Source: a virus (Duplodnaviria > Caudoviricetes). Taken from it: 64,000 nt of DNA. Positions 5,262 to 63,631 of this stretch are shown here, one piece after another. Below the pieces are notes generated by a model, which worked only from the letters and a program-made list of their open reading frames with translations, was not told the origin of the DNA and ran no database searches. Each line of letters begins with the position of its first letter. Position 1 is the first letter of the stretch. The stretch is from positions 6,683 to 70,682 of IMG/VR virus record IMGVR_UViG_3300038393_000327; one strand, written 5' to 3'. The position numbers and the translations under genes are program-made.

Positions 5262-5910
5262 AGTCTTTCCCTTTCGCGCCTTTATCCGGTTGAAAAGCTA
5301 CTGACCAAAAGGCAAAAAACCGCCAGTAGCCAAGTAACCGGATTAGCAACGGCCAATTAGGAACAAGCCCGCATGAAACCATCGCGTTAAGGTCTATTCA
5401 ATTGAGAAAGAACCATACTAAAACTAAGACATAGCTTTAGTATCCACCGCTCCCACGCTTTCGCGCTTAGACGGTAAGTAAGGTGGTTGTACAAAACAAC
5501 CAGAATGCAAGCGCTTGGGTGCCTATGCTTCCGCTCTAGCTTCCGCCTTGTCCCGCTTGTCCTACATATCGGAGGCGGGGGCTTGGCTAGTGCACCTATG
5601 GTCCTATCCCGGAGGATGCTTCCGAAGGCTGAAGGCTGACAAGGCAAGCGCACATGTCGCATTCAATGGGTATTAAAACATGCGATTGTGGCAGAAATAA
5701 GGCAGAAAACCAGGAATAAATTCCTATCTTATCACGCGGATATAAGGCACGAGCGCGCACGTATGCCAGGTTAGGCTAACGTTAGGTGATAGGCTCTAAA
5801 TCGTCCACAAATGCCCGTACAAGCGTTTTCGTTGTTTCTGGCATGGTGATACCCGGAAACCCCTAGAAACGCTTCTAGGACCGGTTCCTGTGGCAGCTAG
5901 GGCATAGGCA

Positions 5911-5963
5911 AAAGAAAAGCCCGGTTCCGATCCTGCCAGCTAGGCGAGACCAGTTCCGGGCTT
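5911..5963 (-). terminator. probable terminator hairpin
   Basis: AAGCCCGG...CCGGGCTTTTCTTTT downstream of the early genes. Confidence 0.6.
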
Positions 5964-5970
5964 GATTAGA

Positions 5971-6186
5971 TCACAAGTAATCGTCGGCTTGTCCGCTTTC
6001 GATAAAGGCACATTTGGCACAATGCCTTGATAGCTTTACAAGTCTTTCAGGGTCTTTTGCTTCCTTTGCAGCTTGTAAATAGTAATAAGCCGCTTGAGTA
6101 TAGTTTTCTTCCATTCTCGCAACATCGCCCATTGTTTCGAATAGACCTTTTGCGAGCTCTCTCTTGTCAACATACATCTTAGACAT
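5971..6186 (-). CDS. early hypothetical protein
   Basis: 71 aa, AAGGGA SD. Confidence 0.7.
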   Translation of the reverse strand: MSKMYVDKRELAKGLFETMGDVARMEENYTQAAYYYLQAAKEAKDPERLVKLSRHCAKCAFIESGQADDYL

Positions 6187-6400
6187 GAGATATTCCCTTT
6201 GCTGCTAGTGAGAATTGATAGTGCATTTCTAGAGTATCATAGATATGGTTTATTGCCCTATAGAGTTGGGTTTCATTGATTATCCCATATCTCTTAAGGT
6301 GTATCCTTATGATCTCCGTTGCACAATCTTCCCGCCTATTTCCAGCTAACCAGCTAGACTTAGCGTAAAAGTTGATTTCTGCTATATCACGGTCATTCAT
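6179..6400 (-). CDS. early hypothetical protein
   Basis: 73 aa, AAGGGAAA SD. Confidence 0.7.
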   Translation of the reverse strand: MNDRDIAEINFYAKSSWLAGNRREDCATEIIRIHLKRYGIINETQLYRAINHIYDTLEMHYQFSLAAKGISHV

Positions 6401-6470
6401 AGGTTTTCCCTTTCACGATATTAACCTATTCACCTATCGCCTAATAAATCCCTAGTAGCCATTGTGTTGA

Positions 6471-6665
6471 TTATTTAGCTAGACAAACGATTTCAACTCG
6501 TTTGATTTCACTTGGCTTGTATTGAACGGTATTGTTATTACCGTCGCTACTAATCGCACCTTTAGTCATTAATTCATTGAAGAAATAGAGCATATCGTTA
6601 ATGTCTCTATATTCCCCATAATATTGTCTAGAGCCTTCAAGTTCGAAGAATAGTTGATAGACCAT
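6471..6665 (-). CDS. early hypothetical protein
   Basis: 64 aa ORF. Confidence 0.65.
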   Translation of the reverse strand: MVYQLFFELEGSRQYYGEYRDINDMLYFFNELMTKGAISSDGNNNTVQYKPSEIKRVEIVCLAK

Positions 6666-6668
6666 GTT

Positions 6669-6923
6669 TCAAAACTCCACATTGTAATAGAGTTTCGAAT
6701 ATTTCCTGATAATAGTTAGAACTTCATCAGGTATAGGTAGATCAAAATCAAACCAAGATTGTTCGTAACCTGGTTCAATCTTCATACAATGCTTACCTAT
6801 ATCAGTAACACCGCCTTTCGGAGTAGCGCGGAACAATACACGATAGGTTTCTGTCCTATCGGGATAAGACAAATCAATGTCAAATCCGTTTTCATATTGT
6901 TCTATTCTTTCATACGGTCGCAT
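6669..6923 (-). CDS. early hypothetical protein
   Basis: 84 aa, AAGGGAAA SD. Confidence 0.7.
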   Translation of the reverse strand: MRPYERIEQYENGFDIDLSYPDRTETYRVLFRATPKGGVTDIGKHCMKIEPGYEQSWFDFDLPIPDEVLTIIRKYSKLYYNVEF

Positions 6924-7026
6924 TAGTCTTTCCCTTTCTTTGTAGTGTTAAAACTACTAGGGATTAACTAGACGATAGGTCGTTATATCCTACTAGCTAA
7001 TAAAACCGCTCATATAAGCCGGTTGA

Positions 7027-7203
7027 TTAGTGAAGTTCTTTACGTTTCTTTCTTCCTTCAAAGCCGACTTGTTGAATACCTAAATAGATATGCCAGTCGG
7101 CAAACTCATATCTAGACCATTTCTTTCCGTTTTGGATTGAAATCGTATAGATAGTTTCAAAGTATATAGCCAATGCTAGATTTAAGCTTATTTCGTTATT
7201 CAT
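7027..7203 (-). CDS. early hypothetical protein (58 aa, not in ORF track)
   Basis: MNNEISLNLALAIYF...; start overlaps the upstream stop. Confidence 0.55.
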   Translation of the reverse strand: MNNEISLNLALAIYFETIYTISIQNGKKWSRYEFADWHIYLGIQQVGFEGRKKRKELH

Positions 7204-7529
7204 TTCATTACGTCTCTAATGACATGCAAAGGATTACCTTGCTTCATTAGTTCGCGTTGTTCTTGTATTGTCTTGGAATGAACTCTTACGATTTCTCCAG
7301 CCTTAGTATCCGACCATTCGATTGTATAACCGTTCAATACTCTATCGAATAAATCGTATTGTTCTTTCTGTACTACGGCGACCGTTGAACGCGAATGCTG
7401 TCTTTCCCAATCGCGCCAAGCTTTCCATTCAATGCAATCTGTATTTTGCGCTGATAATGGCAAGTCTTGAACACAAGCCCATAGATAAATACCACGGGCG
7501 ATATCACGCGTCTTAGCTGAATTGTTCAT
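7200..7529 (-). CDS. early hypothetical protein
   Basis: GAGGA SD before ATG 7529 (MNNSAKTRDIARG...). Confidence 0.7.
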   Translation of the reverse strand: MNNSAKTRDIARGIYLWACVQDLPLSAQNTDCIEWKAWRDWERQHSRSTVAVVQKEQYDLFDRVLNGYTIEWSDTKAGEIVRVHSKTIQEQRELMKQGNPLHVIRDVMK

Positions 7530-7736
7530 GTTAGTTATCCTCTTGTGTTGGGTTAGCGCTATGCGCCTCATAGAAGCCCATACAAGCGGTTTAACTAGCT
7601 AGTAGGATGGATCATGCCGACAAGAGAGAACGCGCGTTACAGCGCCTCTTGTGCGGTCCTATTCGATTGTCAAAGAACGGGCGGAAGTCGAGACCGGGGT
7701 TAACTCGTTTCGCCAATGCACTGCTATTCCTCCGGA

Positions 7737-7764
7737 ATTATCACATAACCCCATGAGATTTCAA
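7737..7764 (-). promoter_or_regulatory. possible sigma70-type early promoter
   Basis: TTGAAA-16-GATAAT with an upstream TG. Confidence 0.35.
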
Positions 7765-7879
7765 GCAATAAACATATCGCCAGGAAGGTCAACAGGGGAT
7801 AATTATTTTAAAAATCAACGGAAAAGGAGAAAAATATCTCTTTACTTTAAAAAATATGCATAAATTCCTATTTACCCTC

Positions 7880-7908
7880 TTGACAAACATTTTAAATATT
7901 GATATAAT
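7880..7908 (+). promoter_or_regulatory. consensus sigma70 promoter
   Basis: TTGACA-17 nt-TATAAT. Confidence 0.8.
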
Positions 7909-8502
7909 ATATGTATAAGGAAGAGAATAGAGATAGTTCATTGATAATAACATGAAGTATCAAAGAAAGAGTAGATAACAAAGATAAGAGTATTAGATGT
8001 TTTCGATTAAGCTTCTACTCTGGTTAGACTTCATTGGATAGTCATGAATGGTTTGAGTTAGAGTATCAAAGGCTCTAGCTGGGACAGTGAGCTATGATTA
8101 TGATCCGCGATGACTGGTGCGGGCAAGAATAGGTCTAGCTGTATAAGAGATATGTATCATTCATTTAATGGATAACTATGTCGATGTTATATAAGGCAAG
8201 TACTCATACATGATAGTGTTTACTCTTTATTGTATAAATCCCAAGTAATGGACAATGACCCAAAGCTAATACTGAATAGATAGTATTCACAAATATTAGA
8301 GATAATATACACGAAAAGTATGGCGCTCTCTACTTCTCATCCAAGTATATCTCAAAGTATAACACCTACTATACTTCCTGGTTGATAGTATAGCCGAAGT
8401 ATTACTCTAGTAGAGCCAGGGGAGAGGTGACAGGGTGGGGGTATACCGATATCGTATACACAGTCGGCGTAATTTTGGAAAAATCAAAGGTGTAAATATT
8501 CT

Positions 8503-8913
8503 ATGGCAAATAAAGAAAGAACAGAGCTACAACAGAAGTTCCTAGAGGCTCTATTTGGAGATGCCCAAGGTAATGTTCGTGAAGCTATGAGAATGGCTGG
8601 ATACGCAGAGAATACTAAGGTCTCCGAAGTTGTCCGGGCGCTCCGGGATGATATTGTAGAACAAGCCAATATGGTACTAGCTCTCAATTCTCCTAGGGCA
8701 GCAATGGAATTAGTAGGATTGCTCGTTGACCCAAACCAAGTAGCTGCACCGACTAAACTCAGAGCTATCCAAGAGATTCTTAATAGAGTTGGTGTTGATG
8801 CTCCTAAACAAGATCAAGACATCAATCTCAAAGTTCCACAAGGTGGTCTATTTATTATGCCTGCAAAGGGTAATGACAAGGAGATTAAAGATGAAGAAGA
8901 CAATGAAGGTTAA
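8503..8913 (+). CDS. terS: terminase small subunit
   Basis: HTH-like N-terminus (LTE/QQKFLEAL...AMRMAGY), directly upstream of terL. Confidence 0.7.
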   Translation: MANKERTELQQKFLEALFGDAQGNVREAMRMAGYAENTKVSEVVRALRDDIVEQANMVLALNSPRAAMELVGLLVDPNQVAAPTKLRAIQEILNRVGVDAPKQDQDINLKVPQGGLFIMPAKGNDKEIKDEEDNEG

Positions 8914-8925
8914 GAATTGTAAATC

Positions 8926-10842
8926 ATGCGGGAAACCAATGAACAAGGGCAGTCACAAGAACTGCTAAATGAGAAATATCCTGAAAGACCTCATCTTACT
9001 AGAATTCCTTACGGCTATATAAAGAAAGCAGGTGATCCTAATCTCCTCGTCCCTGATCCGGCTGTTATCCCACTCCTTGATCAAGCCTTAGACCAGTTAG
9101 ACGCAGGTATATCTCTACGGACAGTCACGGAGTGGTTGAATGCTAATACACCTGAATACGCTCAATTATCTCACTCTGGTCTAGTTAAACTCAGGAAGTT
9201 CTACAGACCTAATGCTAAGGTAAAGAAAGCTCCAATAAAGAGACTAACTCCTGATGAGAAAGCAGCCAAGAAAAGAAGGATGCTTATTGCTCAGGAAAAG
9301 AAGAAGATTAAGAATGCTCAAAAGAGGGCAGCCCGGTTAGGAGAAGAACTAACTATAATCAAAGAGAATACTATCGATGCAAAGGATAGGTCTCTGTTGA
9401 TGGAGTTAGACTATTCATCTCCTGAATACAAAGAAATAGAACAAGAAGAGATTCCTGTTGTCTTTAAACCTAACCCCGGACCACAAACCCTCTTCTTTGC
9501 TGCAGAAGAACTCGAAGTTCTCTATGGTGGTGCAGCAGGGGGAGGAAAGTCCTACGCTCTAATCGCTGACCCAATGCGGTACTTCGATAATAAGCATTTT
9601 CGTGGGTTGATCCTTCGTAGAACCAATGACGAACTCCGTGAACTGATCTGGAAATCTCAAGAGTTGTATCCTCAGATTTGGGATAAGGCTCAATGGAGAG
9701 AGAAAGACAAGGAATGGAGATTTCCTTCTGGTGCTAGACTCTGGATGACTTATCTCGAAAGAGATGAAGACGTAATGCGTTACCACGGTCAGGCATTTAC
9801 TTATATCGGTATCGACGAGTTAACTCAATACTCTACTCCATTTGCTTGGAACTTCATGAGGTCTCGTCTCCGTGATGCTTCTGGTACTCTCCCTCTATTC
9901 ATGAGAGCTACCACAAACCCCGGCGGCCCCGGCCACGGATGGGTCAAGAGGATGTTCGTTGATCCTGCCCCGAAGGGGAAAGCTTTCTGGGCAACAGACA
10001 TCGATTCAGGGGAAACTCTAACCTTCCCTAAAGACCATCCTAAGTCAGGACAACCTCTCTTTAAAAGACGTTTCATCCCTGCCCGTGTCTCAGACAATCC
10101 TTATATCTGGGCCGATGGTAACTATGAAGCCAATCTGATGTCTCTCCCTGAAGTCCAACGTAAACAACTTCTTGAAGGGGATTGGTCTGTTGCAGATGGC
10201 GCAGCCTTCTCAGAATTCAATGAAAGAGTCCATACTTGTGAACCATTCGAGGTTCCTGCTGGTTGGAGGAAGTTCAGAAGTTGTGACTTCGGTTATTCAA
10301 CTTTCTCTGCAGTACATTGGTATGCTATTGATCCTGAAGATGTCCTTTATGTTTATAGAGAACTCTATGTCTCTAAGAAGACTGGTAAGGAACTCGCCCG
10401 GCTAATATTGGATTTAGAAAAGAATGAGAAAGTCACTTATGGTGTCCTAGACTCTTCTGTCTGGGCTCAAAGAGGACAAACCGGCCCGAGTATCGCAGAA
10501 GAAATGATCGCAGAGGGTTGCCGTTGGAGGCCATCAGATCGTACCGCAGGTAGCCGTATCAATGGAAAGAACAGACTTCACGAACTCTTGAAGGTGAATA
10601 AATACACCAATCGCCCCGGCATCATCTTCTTTAATACTTGTCGCCAAATCATCGCTGATCTACCTATGATCCCTATGGACCCTAAAGGTGGAGAAGACAT
10701 TGATGATAGATATTTATCTGATCACGCTTATGACTCAATTCGTTATGGTATCATGACTAGACCCCGTGGTAATGAAGTAATGTCACTACAAAACTACAAG
10801 GTTACTCATTGGATGCCTTCAGACCCCACTTTTGGATATTAA
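8926..10842 (+). CDS. terL: terminase large subunit with ~170 aa N-terminal extension
   Basis: YGGAAGGGKS Walker A, GIDELTQ Walker B, RATTNPGG, C-terminal DHAYDSIRY nuclease motif. Confidence 0.95.
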   Translation: MRETNEQGQSQELLNEKYPERPHLTRIPYGYIKKAGDPNLLVPDPAVIPLLDQALDQLDAGISLRTVTEWLNANTPEYAQLSHSGLVKLRKFYRPNAKVKKAPIKRLTPDEKAAKKRRMLIAQEKKKIKNAQKRAARLGEELTIIKENTIDAKDRSLLMELDYSSPEYKEIEQEEIPVVFKPNPGPQTLFFAAEELEVLYGGAAGGGKSYALIADPMRYFDNKHFRGLILRRTNDELRELIWKSQELYPQIWDKAQWREKDKEWRFPSGARLWMTYLERDEDVMRYHGQAFTYIGIDELTQYSTPFAWNFMRSRLRDASGTLPLFMRATTNPGGPGHGWVKRMFVDPAPKGKAFWATDIDSGETLTFPKDHPKSGQPLFKRRFIPARVSDNPYIWADGNYEANLMSLPEVQRKQLLEGDWSVADGAAFSEFNERVHTCEPFEVPAGWRKFRSCDFGYSTFSAVHWYAIDPEDVLYVYRELYVSKKTGKELARLILDLEKNEKVTYGVLDSSVWAQRGQTGPSIAEEMIAEGCRWRPSDRTAGSRINGKNRLHELLKVNKYTNRPGIIFFNTCRQIIADLPMIPMDPKGGEDIDDRYLSDHAYDSIRYGIMTRPRGNEVMSLQNYKVTHWMPSDPTFGY

Positions 10843-46498: not shown

Positions 46499-47020
46499 TT
46501 ACCACTTAACTGTTTCGTTTTCTTCTTCTGTCTCAACAGGTTCCTTGTATTCGATGAGATCAATGAGTTTTACTGACTCAAGGCGATTACCTGGACCCAT
46601 AGCTGTTGGATAAACACACAGGGTGATCTGGACATCAGAACCATTTCCAATGAGAATTGTCTCACCCTTCTTGACGATCTTTGTCTTAGGGTCATCATAA
46701 GAACGAAGCATCTTGTCATCCTCGCCATAATATCCAACGAGGACCTTGCCATCTTTGCCGTAGATCACAGGGGGAGTGAAATACACGATCTTACCCTTGA
46801 TCATCTTTGTAGTAGGACGAGAGGCAGCAAAGAAAGAACCATTCTCGTCTTTATTCACCTTCTTCTGGATACCTAGAGCCTTGTATTTATTCCACTCTTC
46901 AGGATCATCCATATAAAGGTTCATTGTCCAACGAACAGCACCTTTGAATTCGTCTGGCTTATAAAGTTTTGTCCAGTATGCTTTACCGTTGAACTGTACG
47001 TATTGTGTTTGTGATACCAT
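46499..47020 (-). CDS. ssb: single-stranded DNA-binding protein (gp2.5-like)
   Basis: GKAYW.KL..PD, IGNGS.V.....Y...G.RLE.V; acidic tail ending in W. Confidence 0.75.
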   Translation of the reverse strand: MVSQTQYVQFNGKAYWTKLYKPDEFKGAVRWTMNLYMDDPEEWNKYKALGIQKKVNKDENGSFFAASRPTTKMIKGKIVYFTPPVIYGKDGKVLVGYYGEDDKMLRSYDDPKTKIVKKGETILIGNGSDVQITLCVYPTAMGPGNRLESVKLIDLIEYKEPVETEEENETVKW

Positions 47021-47035
47021 TAAATTTCCTTTTTG

Positions 47036-47503
47036 TTATATTGTATTCGGTATAAAAATATTAACTGATAACTTAGCTAATTCATCTACTAACTCATTCA
47101 GTTTATTCCCATTATGAGCTTTGACCCATTGGAAATCCCAATTAATCCATTTTACTTTCTTCATGGCTTCGACTGCTTCCCATAAATCTAGATGGGTTTT
47201 AGTCTTCCATTTCCCTGTTGCTCCCATGACTACGTATTTGGAGTCACTCACGATAGTCACATCATAAGGCTTCGCTCCCTTCTCTATATCGTCTAAAATG
47301 TCAGGATACCAGAGAAGACTATCAACAGCTAACATAGCTTCGAATAAAGCTTGTAATTCCATCTCATTGTTAGTTGTTTCGTCTTTACGACCTGCTCTCC
47401 AATGCTGAATTTGAGATTTAGGATAGTCAGGGGGTTCGATTACAAATGCCCAACCACCAGGACCAGGATTTCCGAAACACGCTCCATCAGTGAATATCCT
47501 CAT
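47036..47503 (-). CDS. rnhA: ribonuclease HI
   Basis: FTDGAC.GNPGPGG, TNNEMEL, SDSKY, WVKAH, NELVDELA. Confidence 0.92.
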   Translation of the reverse strand: MRIFTDGACFGNPGPGGWAFVIEPPDYPKSQIQHWRAGRKDETTNNEMELQALFEAMLAVDSLLWYPDILDDIEKGAKPYDVTIVSDSKYVVMGATGKWKTKTHLDLWEAVEAMKKVKWINWDFQWVKAHNGNKLNELVDELAKLSVNIFIPNTI

Positions 47504-62615: not shown

Positions 62616-63631
62616 TTGAATAATCTTTCAATGTGTTCAATCACTTTTGCACTCCGATAAGTATAATCAGAGTGTTCAATCATATGGAATGGTTTCTTCC
62701 ATTCTCTGAGTTTCTGTACCATACCATAATAGAATTGCCACCTTTGCATCTCCGTCATTACGCGCTCACCATCCTGGACCCAAGGAACAGAAGGAGCCAT
62801 GCATAGATATAGATCGATGTCCCGTTGACGAGCAAATTCGAAAAACGGTAACGAGTCCGCGTCAGGATGCCAAAGTTCAAAATACAAAGCAGTAACGAGA
62901 GATTCAGTGTCGCTAATAACCAGAGGGACATCATAACACCTAGATACTGCATTCTCGATGAAGGCATCTTGTCCATGGAGAATAACTTCGAAGTCTTGTC
63001 TGTTGAGTTTGTTATGTCTAGGCTTGCAGATTGTCCTCCCGTATTCTGGCACACAAGGACACCCGAAGTGTTTTCCAAGTTCCTTGACCAAGAGAGACTT
63101 CCCTGTTGACTCAGGTCCTACGATAGCAACCTTTTTAACGAAGGATGGTTTGACATAGTTAGGTAACAAAGAAAAGTATTGTTGGAGGTCACTTCTTACT
63201 TTTGTTCCACTTACCTGAATGATTTCTCTGTCTGGATCGACGGGATACCATTCGGCGCTAAGTTCTTCAGCAATTCGTTTTCCGTACTCATCAGATGTGA
63301 AGACATGAGTAATATAATTACTTGGACTGACATCATCAAGAATACGGGCAGTATCCGCCAACCAACGATCCCAATAACTTTCATCTGTGATTGTCCCCTT
63401 CTCGTCTTTCGATACATTAATATCGAATTCTCTTTGAGCAATAATTTGATGAGGCCAACCGCCTATGGCCTTTGCAGCCCACTCGATCCTCTTTTGGACA
63501 GGAATAAAATCTTCATCCGTAAAACCAATAAGGACGATCAACTTATCAACACAAGCTGCTGCTGTCTGCAATAAAAGCTCATGACCTTGGTGGAACGGGA
63601 GAAACTTTCCCAGAGTTAGGCCAACTTTCAT
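62612..63631 (-). CDS. nadR: NadR-like NMN adenylyltransferase / ribosylnicotinamide kinase
   Basis: GKFLPFHQGH, SGT.VR, VGPESTGKS, PEYGR, DT, W.QDG.R. Confidence 0.92.
   Translation of the reverse strand: MKVGLTLGKFLPFHQGHELLLQTAAACVDKLIVLIGFTDEDFIPVQKRIEWAAKAIGGWPHQIIAQREFDINVSKDEKGTITDESYWDRWLADTARILDDVSPSNYITHVFTSDEYGKRIAEELSAEWYPVDPDREIIQVSGTKVRSDLQQYFSLLPNYVKPSFVKKVAIVGPESTGKSLLVKELGKHFGCPCVPEYGRTICKPRHNKLNRQDFEVILHGQDAFIENAVSRCYDVPLVISDTESLVTALYFELWHPDADSLPFFEFARQRDIDLYLCMAPSVPWVQDGERVMTEMQRWQFYYGMVQKLREWKKPFHMIEHSDYTYRSAKVIEHIERLFK

Follow-up and report, generated by a model that had tools for sequence, protein, structure and literature searches.

Two long-range stalks at the start of the leftward operon

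The stretch of DNA analysed here (the window, 64,000 nucleotides (nt) in length) comprises bases 6683-70682 of a 70,682-base-pair (bp) phage record from IMG/VR, IMGVR_UViG_3300038393_000327, which bears direct terminal repeats. The portal and terminase identify the phage as a podophage of the phiM6/HMO-2011 type, with the portal at most 58% identical to those of its best GenBank relatives, Sinorhizobium phage phiM6 and the Roseobacter CRP phages. Rightward structural genes begin at 8926, and everything to the left of about 7760 reads leftwards. At the very beginning of this leftward operon, divergent from the packaging genes, lies an array of two tandem stalks, each a long helix that the minus-strand transcript can form between sequences on either side of a pair of small genes (Table 1).

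Table 1. Features of the stalk array and of the region just upstream of it (window coordinates; aa, amino acids; ORFan, orphan open reading frame)
Feature	Coordinates	Strand	Description
Stalk 2, 5' arm	7575..7608	(-)	34 nt; outer helix 11 bp, core UAGUUAA 7597-7591, inner helix 16 bp
Stalk 2, 3' arm	6987..7020	(-)	core UUUAUUA 7004-6998; begins 6 nt past the stop codon of gene 7027-7203
Stalk 1, 5' arm	6952..6980	(-)	outer helix 10 bp, core UAGUUAA 6970-6964, inner helix 12 bp including two terminal G.U
Stalk 1, 3' arm	6432..6460	(-)	core UUUAUUA 6448-6442; begins 10 nt past the stop codon of gene 6471-6665
Cassette 2, cargo gene 1	7200..7529	(-)	109 aa ORFan; AAGAGGA ribosome-binding site 7 nt upstream
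Cassette 2, cargo gene 2	7027..7203	(-)	58 aa ORFan; start overlaps the stop of the preceding gene
Cassette 1, cargo gene 1	6669..6923	(-)	84 aa ORFan
Cassette 1, cargo gene 2	6471..6665	(-)	64 aa ORFan
Candidate early promoter	7737..7764	(-)	TTGAAA, 16 nt, GATAAT, TG upstream; ~120 nt upstream of the first stalk; sigma-70-like by consensus match only
Leader elements	7609..7677	(-)	directly upstream of the first stalk: block, hairpin with U-rich tract, GGCATGATCC

The pairing proposed for both stalks in an initial annotation of the window was reproduced position by position. In stalk 2, residues 7608-7575 pair with 7020-6987 through 27 Watson-Crick pairs, six G.U wobbles and one U.U mismatch; in stalk 1, residues 6980-6954 pair with 6458-6432 through 24 Watson-Crick pairs, two G.U wobbles and one U.U mismatch, and the helix can be extended by two further G.U pairs, to 6952/6460. 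The gap of 6 nt between the stalks and the positions of the four enclosed open reading frames (ORFs), all on the minus strand, were also found as described. All eight wobbles of the pairing as first drawn are G.U solely on the minus strand; read on the plus strand, they become A.C mismatches. The two stalks share a core, CUAGUUAA opposite UUUAUUAG, which lies at 7598-7591 and 7004-6997 in stalk 2 and at 6971-6964 and 6448-6441 in stalk 1, and which holds both U.U mismatches.

A scan for ungapped helices, with arms 100-2000 nt apart, covered both strands of the entire 70,682-bp genome. Scored as minus-strand RNA, the stalks reach 67 and 58 and rank first and second genome-wide, the next best helix scoring 46; the maxima of 18 dinucleotide-preserving shuffles of the genome have a mean of 43.7 (standard deviation 3.2) and a highest value of 49. 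The ViennaRNA minimum-free-energy fold of the 1341-nt minus-strand transcript from 7740 to 6400 includes the stalks at 33 of 34 and 24 of 27 pairs, with pair probabilities that are mostly 0.76-1.0 and are lower only for the last three pairs of stalk 1. The energies of the arm duplexes are -49.0 and -42.7 kcal/mol.

A third, outer helix was also considered, joining 7635-7613 to 6174-6152 on the minus strand (23 nt, -34 kcal/mol, three G.U). This candidate starts 5 nt outside stalk 2, would enclose both stalks together with gene 6179-6400, and has its 3' strand within codons 5-12 of gene 5971-6186. With a score of 46, within the range of the shuffles, and no counterpart in four relatives, it was set aside as unproven.

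Stalks in related phages

Because the enclosed proteins have neither a family nor relatives, related arrays were sought through the neighbouring terminase gene and through patterns of the arms. One of 80 terminase-related viral loci, L008, whose terminase is 59% identical, has a tandem pair of long-range stalks on the strand that corresponds. An arm-pattern scan of viral contigs gave, among the matches listed, G001 (three tandem stalks in a 69.5-kb record), G003 (three stalks), and G002 and L193 (one stalk each), and terminase relatives from metagenomes added L270, also with one. Stalks occur in at least six further uncultured phage records (at least seven in all), which together hold at least 12 distinct stalks in tandem arrays of up to three. 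The stalk-bearing relatives are 53-66% identical to this phage in the terminase and 58-78% in the portal, and in 7 of 7 records the array lies 1.3-2.7 kb upstream of the terminase gene and is divergent from it.

The complete genome of an uncultured relative, G004, contains no stalk, and the cultured relatives phiM6 and RHph_N3_19 have none in the equivalent region. GenBank phages include no close DNA relative of the region and no match to the arms. Additional pattern scans of viral contigs returned chance matches only, as did a pattern scan of 185,579 species genomes, in which no true stalk was found; Rfam has no family in 5800-9000 of the window.

Several other inverted repeats and pairings were seen in these genomes. 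In G001, an alternative nested fold can form at sense coordinates 46623-46636 and 47037-47050, where the outer strand on the 3' side of stalk a also matches the one on the 5' side of stalk c and encloses stalk b in eight additional pairs; the outer stems of these two stalks, a and c, resemble diverged copies. In G002, residues 2792-2817 and 2929-2954 form 26 perfect pairs around a 111-nt loop, an inverted repeat that lacks the core motif, and G004 has strong inverted repeats at 63372-63524 and 66574-66765, with spans of 152 and 191 nt and again no core motif. The marine relatives L042, L045, L050, L249, L255, L259 and L260 have in common a 26-nt helix with a score of 52-53 and arms 1494 nt apart, on the strand opposite the terminase, which may simply be conserved coding sequence.

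Anatomy and covariation of the stalk family

We aligned 12 distinct stalks from seven phage records, anchoring them on the core, and scored 20 non-core columns. The helices are 28-35 bp long with a single Y.U mismatch (Y, pyrimidine), and their arms are 281-593 nt apart. All 12 begin with an outer stem of 9-11 bp. This is followed by a nearly invariant core of 7 bp, 5'-UAGUYAA-3' opposite 5'-UUUAUUA-3', with the pairs U-A, A-U, G.U, U-A (once U.G), Y.U, A-U and A-U in that order, and then by an inner stem of 8-16 uninterrupted pairs, which often begins RCCGCUUG (R, purine). The identity of the core in the two stalks of the window, pointed out in the initial annotation, is no coincidence between two helices; the core is a real conserved element.

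Outside the core, standard pairs fill 99.2% of the cells and compensatory double changes occur in 18 of the 20 columns. When partners were shuffled within columns, 1000 trials gave a mean of 67% paired and a maximum of 75%; sliding the partner strand by 1-3 columns left 30-51% paired (11-stalk set, core columns included). Genome-wide, pairs of the two core motifs show a sharply bimodal distribution, with 19-20 of 20 flanking pairs in true stalks and at most 14 in unrelated motif pairs; cross-pairings between the arms of neighbouring stalks reach 15-17 of 20. G.U combinations outside the core number 23, against a single A.C, and pairing has therefore been selected on the sense strand, i.e. in RNA; every stalk scores 11-25 points higher on that strand. 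The stalks are thus a selected RNA structure, with the helix kept at the RNA level by evolution. Selection on the RNA of the transcribed minus strand, which had been suggested from the wobbles of the two window stalks, is borne out by covariation of 12 stalks in seven records.

While the flanking columns change freely, the core retains its two irregularities. A single transition would turn the core G.U into G-C or A-U, yet neither is seen in the 12 stalks, and the Y.U, one change away from a pair, is never repaired; the imperfection itself is under selection. We considered whether stop codons could be the reason for the 5' core, which contains UAG and UAA in two frames. This explanation was rejected, as the UAGUCAA variant loses the second stop and the conserved 3' partner is left unexplained.

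The alignment also bears on two other roles for the arms. The initial annotation had named invertible DNA segments as an alternative, and inverted repeats of 27-34 bp do flank segments of ~500 bp. However, the phage genome has no serine or tyrosine recombinase (PF00239, resolvase; PF00589, integrase), 12 of 12 cassettes from seven records carry their cargo in sense orientation and the UAGUYAA half on the upstream side, and the mismatches are strand-specific wobbles, so that inversion is effectively excluded. A long-range attenuator, in which the inner stem and the U-rich 3' core would act as a giant-loop intrinsic terminator and tune read-through from cassette to cassette, would make use of the position of the 3' core UUUAUUA, directly after a G+C-rich stem strand as in the U-tract of a terminator. 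Yet a covarying outer stem of 9-11 bp lies beyond this tract in 12 of 12 stalks, so that transcription normally continues past the tract and the helix is completed. Read-through is required for the cassettes and genes further downstream, and a terminator scan found no site at the arms. We consider attenuation of this kind very improbable.

Cassettes and their cargo

Each stalk surrounds one or two small ORFs with good ribosome-binding sites, which for the ORFs of the window were judged by eye in the sequence. The arms lie outside the ORFs, a geometry that leaves translation free: most cassettes have their start codon 20-30 nt past the 5' arm, the distance in stalk 2 being ~45 nt, and stop codons are mostly found 6-11 nt ahead of the 3' arm. 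Neighbouring stalks are usually 2-8 nt apart, and 46 nt apart in L008. None of the four cargo proteins of the window belongs to a Pfam or PHROG family or has a relative in viral contigs, and cargo is unrelated between phages.

Two comparisons separate the arms from what they enclose. Stalk 2 of this phage (G000) and stalk b of G001 have arms that are identical at 30 of 34 and 28 of 34 positions, around interiors with 48% identity, the random level. L008 and G003 are ~95% identical, and G003 has one extra cassette with boundaries that are exactly the outer ends of both arms; at the corresponding place (G003 737-1190, L008 7060-7105, sense coordinates) L008 has an unrelated spacer of 42-46 nt. 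The likeness of arms around unrelated cargo, together with this insertion or deletion (indel), indicates that the framed unit is what changes. The arms are thus a fixed frame, and the whole framed cassette, arms included, is the unit that is gained, lost or replaced.

Such mobility raises the possibility that the arms act in DNA, as boundary sequences that drive the gain, loss and exchange of cassettes by recombination. A role of this type has been proposed for the T4-type PeSL, a sigma-70 promoter plus a local terminator stem-loop that acts through DNA recombination (PMC2839356, PMC4122927). As with PeSL (PMC2839356, PMC4122927), the arms are short conserved elements on either side of small ORFan early genes, in a part of the genome that varies, and indels between close relatives fall at the element boundaries, the difference between L008 and G003 being exactly one whole cassette with both arms. 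The near-identical arms and unrelated interiors of G000 stalk 2 and G001 stalk b would fit as well, and neighbouring cassettes share direct repeats as long as ~16 nt in their 5' arms. Unlike PeSL, however, the stalk arms pair across the gene and covary at the RNA level, and none of the arms in the window contains a promoter-like or terminator-like site. Recombination sites need no complementarity between the arms of one cassette and yield no compensatory changes, and the 23:1 excess of G.U on the transcribed strand would go unexplained. The phage has no match to a serine or tyrosine recombinase, and no target-site duplication is present at the L008/G003 indel. We therefore judge a primary role in DNA to be quite unlikely; cassette exchange is probably a side effect of the repeated arms.

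A terminal-inverted-repeat transposon or miniature inverted-repeat transposable element (MITE) was likewise rejected, there being no target-site duplication at the boundaries of cassette b in the L008/G003 comparison. Serine and tyrosine recombinases were the only mobility families searched in this test, without a match, and transposase families proper were not searched.

Proposed processing of the early transcript

The stalks form a conserved family of long-range helices in early messenger RNA (mRNA), and we propose that they are processed by a double-strand-specific endonuclease, most likely the host RNase III, an interpretation that we consider to have a slightly better than even chance of being correct. 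Each stalk pairs the RNA immediately ahead of a cassette of one or two genes with the RNA immediately behind it, and the resulting duplex of 28-35 bp would be the substrate, with the imperfect core setting the position of the cut or the strand that is cut. A cut at or close to the core would free the cassette, as an mRNA of its own, from the polycistronic early transcript, and the inner stem (8-16 bp) would hold the 5' and 3' ends of the released mRNA paired. Processing of this kind would insulate neighbouring cassettes and guard the two ends of each message against end-dependent RNases; this protection of the message is predicted because RNase E and 3' exonucleases need single-stranded ends.

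RNase III is favoured because a near-perfect duplex of 28-35 bp is its standard substrate, because the length and span of the helices fall within those of mapped targets, and because the helices share their plan with the early sites of T7 and their tandem arrangement with the processing stalks of ribosomal RNA (rRNA) operons. In keeping with an RNase III stalk, we found flanking double-stranded RNA of at least about two turns, compensatory pairing in RNA and arm separations in the mapped range. The initial annotation had gone further and suggested that the released mRNAs might be circularisable. This suggestion is unsupported, as a Pfam search of the phage genome detected no RtcB and no Rnl-type ligase; a Pfam search of the same genome for TROVE (Ro60) gave no match at E <= 1.

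Covariation shows helix formation only, and the helix might instead be an uncleaved structural clamp that closes each cassette into its own RNA domain. A clamp would prevent misfolding between cassettes, block scanning or end-dependent RNases, and bring stop and start together for re-initiation on the same cassette. The fold is very stable (-43 to -49 kcal/mol), and stop and start codons would come close in space, the stops being mostly 6-11 nt away from the 3' arm and the starts, in most cassettes, 20-30 nt away from the 5' arm (~45 nt in one). Against this, RNase III is to our knowledge present in nearly all bacteria, and a near-perfect duplex of 28-35 bp would be hard to keep from it; a clamp also leaves unexplained the constant one-turn outer stem and the obligatory wobble and mismatch at a fixed place. 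We regard an uncleaved clamp as unlikely, though it deserves to be taken seriously.

Several considerations weigh against cleavage by RNase III. We know of no strong positive sequence determinant for bacterial RNase III, and the nearly invariant 7-bp core exceeds the known needs of the enzyme and may be there for a different factor. That the host of this phage has an RNase III, and one of suitable specificity, is assumed, and the phage genome itself has no RNase III domain in Pfam. The absence of stalks from phiM6, RHph_N3_19 and G004 means that the structure is dispensable for this phage type. Lastly, cutting by RNase III could make the messages less stable instead of more so, as is reported for icaR (PMC3868564).

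A factor other than RNase III, of phage or host origin and sequence-specific, could use the core as its binding or cutting site and so regulate or process all cassettes jointly. Such a factor would account for a core that is nearly invariant in sequence, beyond the demands of pairing, across phages with diverged flanking stems, and that retains its G.U and Y.U. However, no candidate protein was found among the proteins common to stalk-bearing genomes and absent from G004, which are enzymes of replication and nucleotide metabolism or lack a Pfam match; a nuclease or RNA-binding domain was recognisable in none of them. This phylogenetic profile is uninformative for a dedicated nuclease because G004 differs across the whole replication module. 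The region has no Rfam match either. We hold a dedicated factor to be rather improbable.

Comparison with known processing systems

Processing by RNase III, as we propose it, has a close parallel in bacterial rRNA operons, where leader and trailer form processing stalks that RNase III is reported to cut (PMC6582327). The phage stalks share with them a long-range helix built from sequences that flank the RNA to be released, a head-to-tail arrangement on one transcript, a helix of more than two turns and its maintenance by covariation. They differ in enclosing a translated message of one or two genes and 280-590 nt, with no structural RNA, in bearing a nearly invariant non-canonical core, and in that cleavage is here inferred. 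Of the likeness to rRNA-operon stalks that the initial annotation had drawn, the geometry (helices of 28-35 bp with arms 281-593 nt apart) holds, whereas the cleavage, its place at the core and a stabilising effect remain predictions.

Long-range duplexes are also known among cellular mRNA targets of RNase III. Those mapped in Bacillus subtilis are 10-36 bp long with strands up to 505 nt apart (PMC11780869), and in Escherichia coli the distance between paired RNase III cuts is 16-1080 nt (PMC6212723); the duplex length and arm span of the phage stalks lie inside these mapped ranges. Tandem gene-bracketing arrays, a conserved core and portable cassettes are features of the phage stalks that the excerpted texts of the two studies do not describe for cellular targets (PMC11780869, PMC6212723).

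The phage stalks further recall the early RNase III sites of phage T7, with which the initial annotation had contrasted them. The T7 sites, located between early genes of a polycistronic transcript, reportedly have an imperfect internal region set between a lower and an upper stem (work attributed to Dunn and Studier). Processed T7 ends carry duplex structure that stabilises the message. The stalks have the same order of outer turn, imperfect centre and inner stem, also on a phage early polycistronic transcript. Unlike the local intergenic hairpins of T7, however, their strands lie on either side of the gene or genes, 281-593 nt apart, and in the product of a stalk the 5' end would be paired with the 3' end of the same molecule. 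The contrast with T7 is sound on this point, since the arms enclose genes and do not form local hairpins.

Full-text searches of the literature turned up no account of phage messages in which long-range stalks bracket genes. What is new here is the application of the principle of the processing stalk, or long-range RNase III duplex, to translated early-gene cassettes of a phage, with a conserved non-canonical core. Early genes of phages hold fast-evolving functions of host takeover and counter-defence, and the expression and exchange of tiny ORFans are poorly understood; an RNA frame that travels with its cassette suggests one rule for both. Any gene placed between the arms would be processed, insulated and probably stabilised alike. 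This would carry the processing-stalk principle of rRNA operons over to mRNAs, and synthetic operons would gain a compact gene insulator of natural origin. The family, with twelve natural versions of one helix in which the wobble and mismatch of the core stay fixed, also offers a clean system for studying the choice of site and strand by RNase III, or another reader of the core.

We speculate, while thinking it unlikely in so strong a form, that stalk cassettes are a general portable expression socket, in which arms, short leader and cargo could be swapped between phages. Either a dedicated factor would recognise the obligatory G.U/Y.U core, or the core would make RNase III cut in a special way, on a single strand or offset, and the ends of the mRNA would be base-paired or even joined. 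If true, such a socket would represent a kind of bacterial mRNA end protection undescribed so far.

Leader and promoter elements upstream of the array

The region between the candidate early promoter and the first stalk (Table 1) was aligned for five genomes, namely the window, G001, G002, G003 and L008. A block matching TCTTTGACAAYYGAATA, at 7677-7659 in the window, is kept in 5 of 5 and could be either the end of a leader ORF of ~20 codons (...SLT(I/T)E-stop) or a signal at the nucleotide level. A small hairpin with a U-rich tract follows (7646-7629 and onwards); it is terminator-like, and the hairpin sequence varies between genomes. Downstream of the hairpin, GGCATGATCC occupies 7618-7609, and GGCATGAT is present in 4 of 5 of the aligned genomes. 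Together, these elements may form a leader or attenuator that governs entry into the stalk array.

A perfect match to the sigma-70 promoter consensus occurs on the plus strand at 7880-7908 (TTGACA, 17 nt, TATAAT, TG upstream). It faces the 136-aa ORF at 8503-8913 and the terminase gene, and stands back to back with the leftward candidate at 7764-7737.

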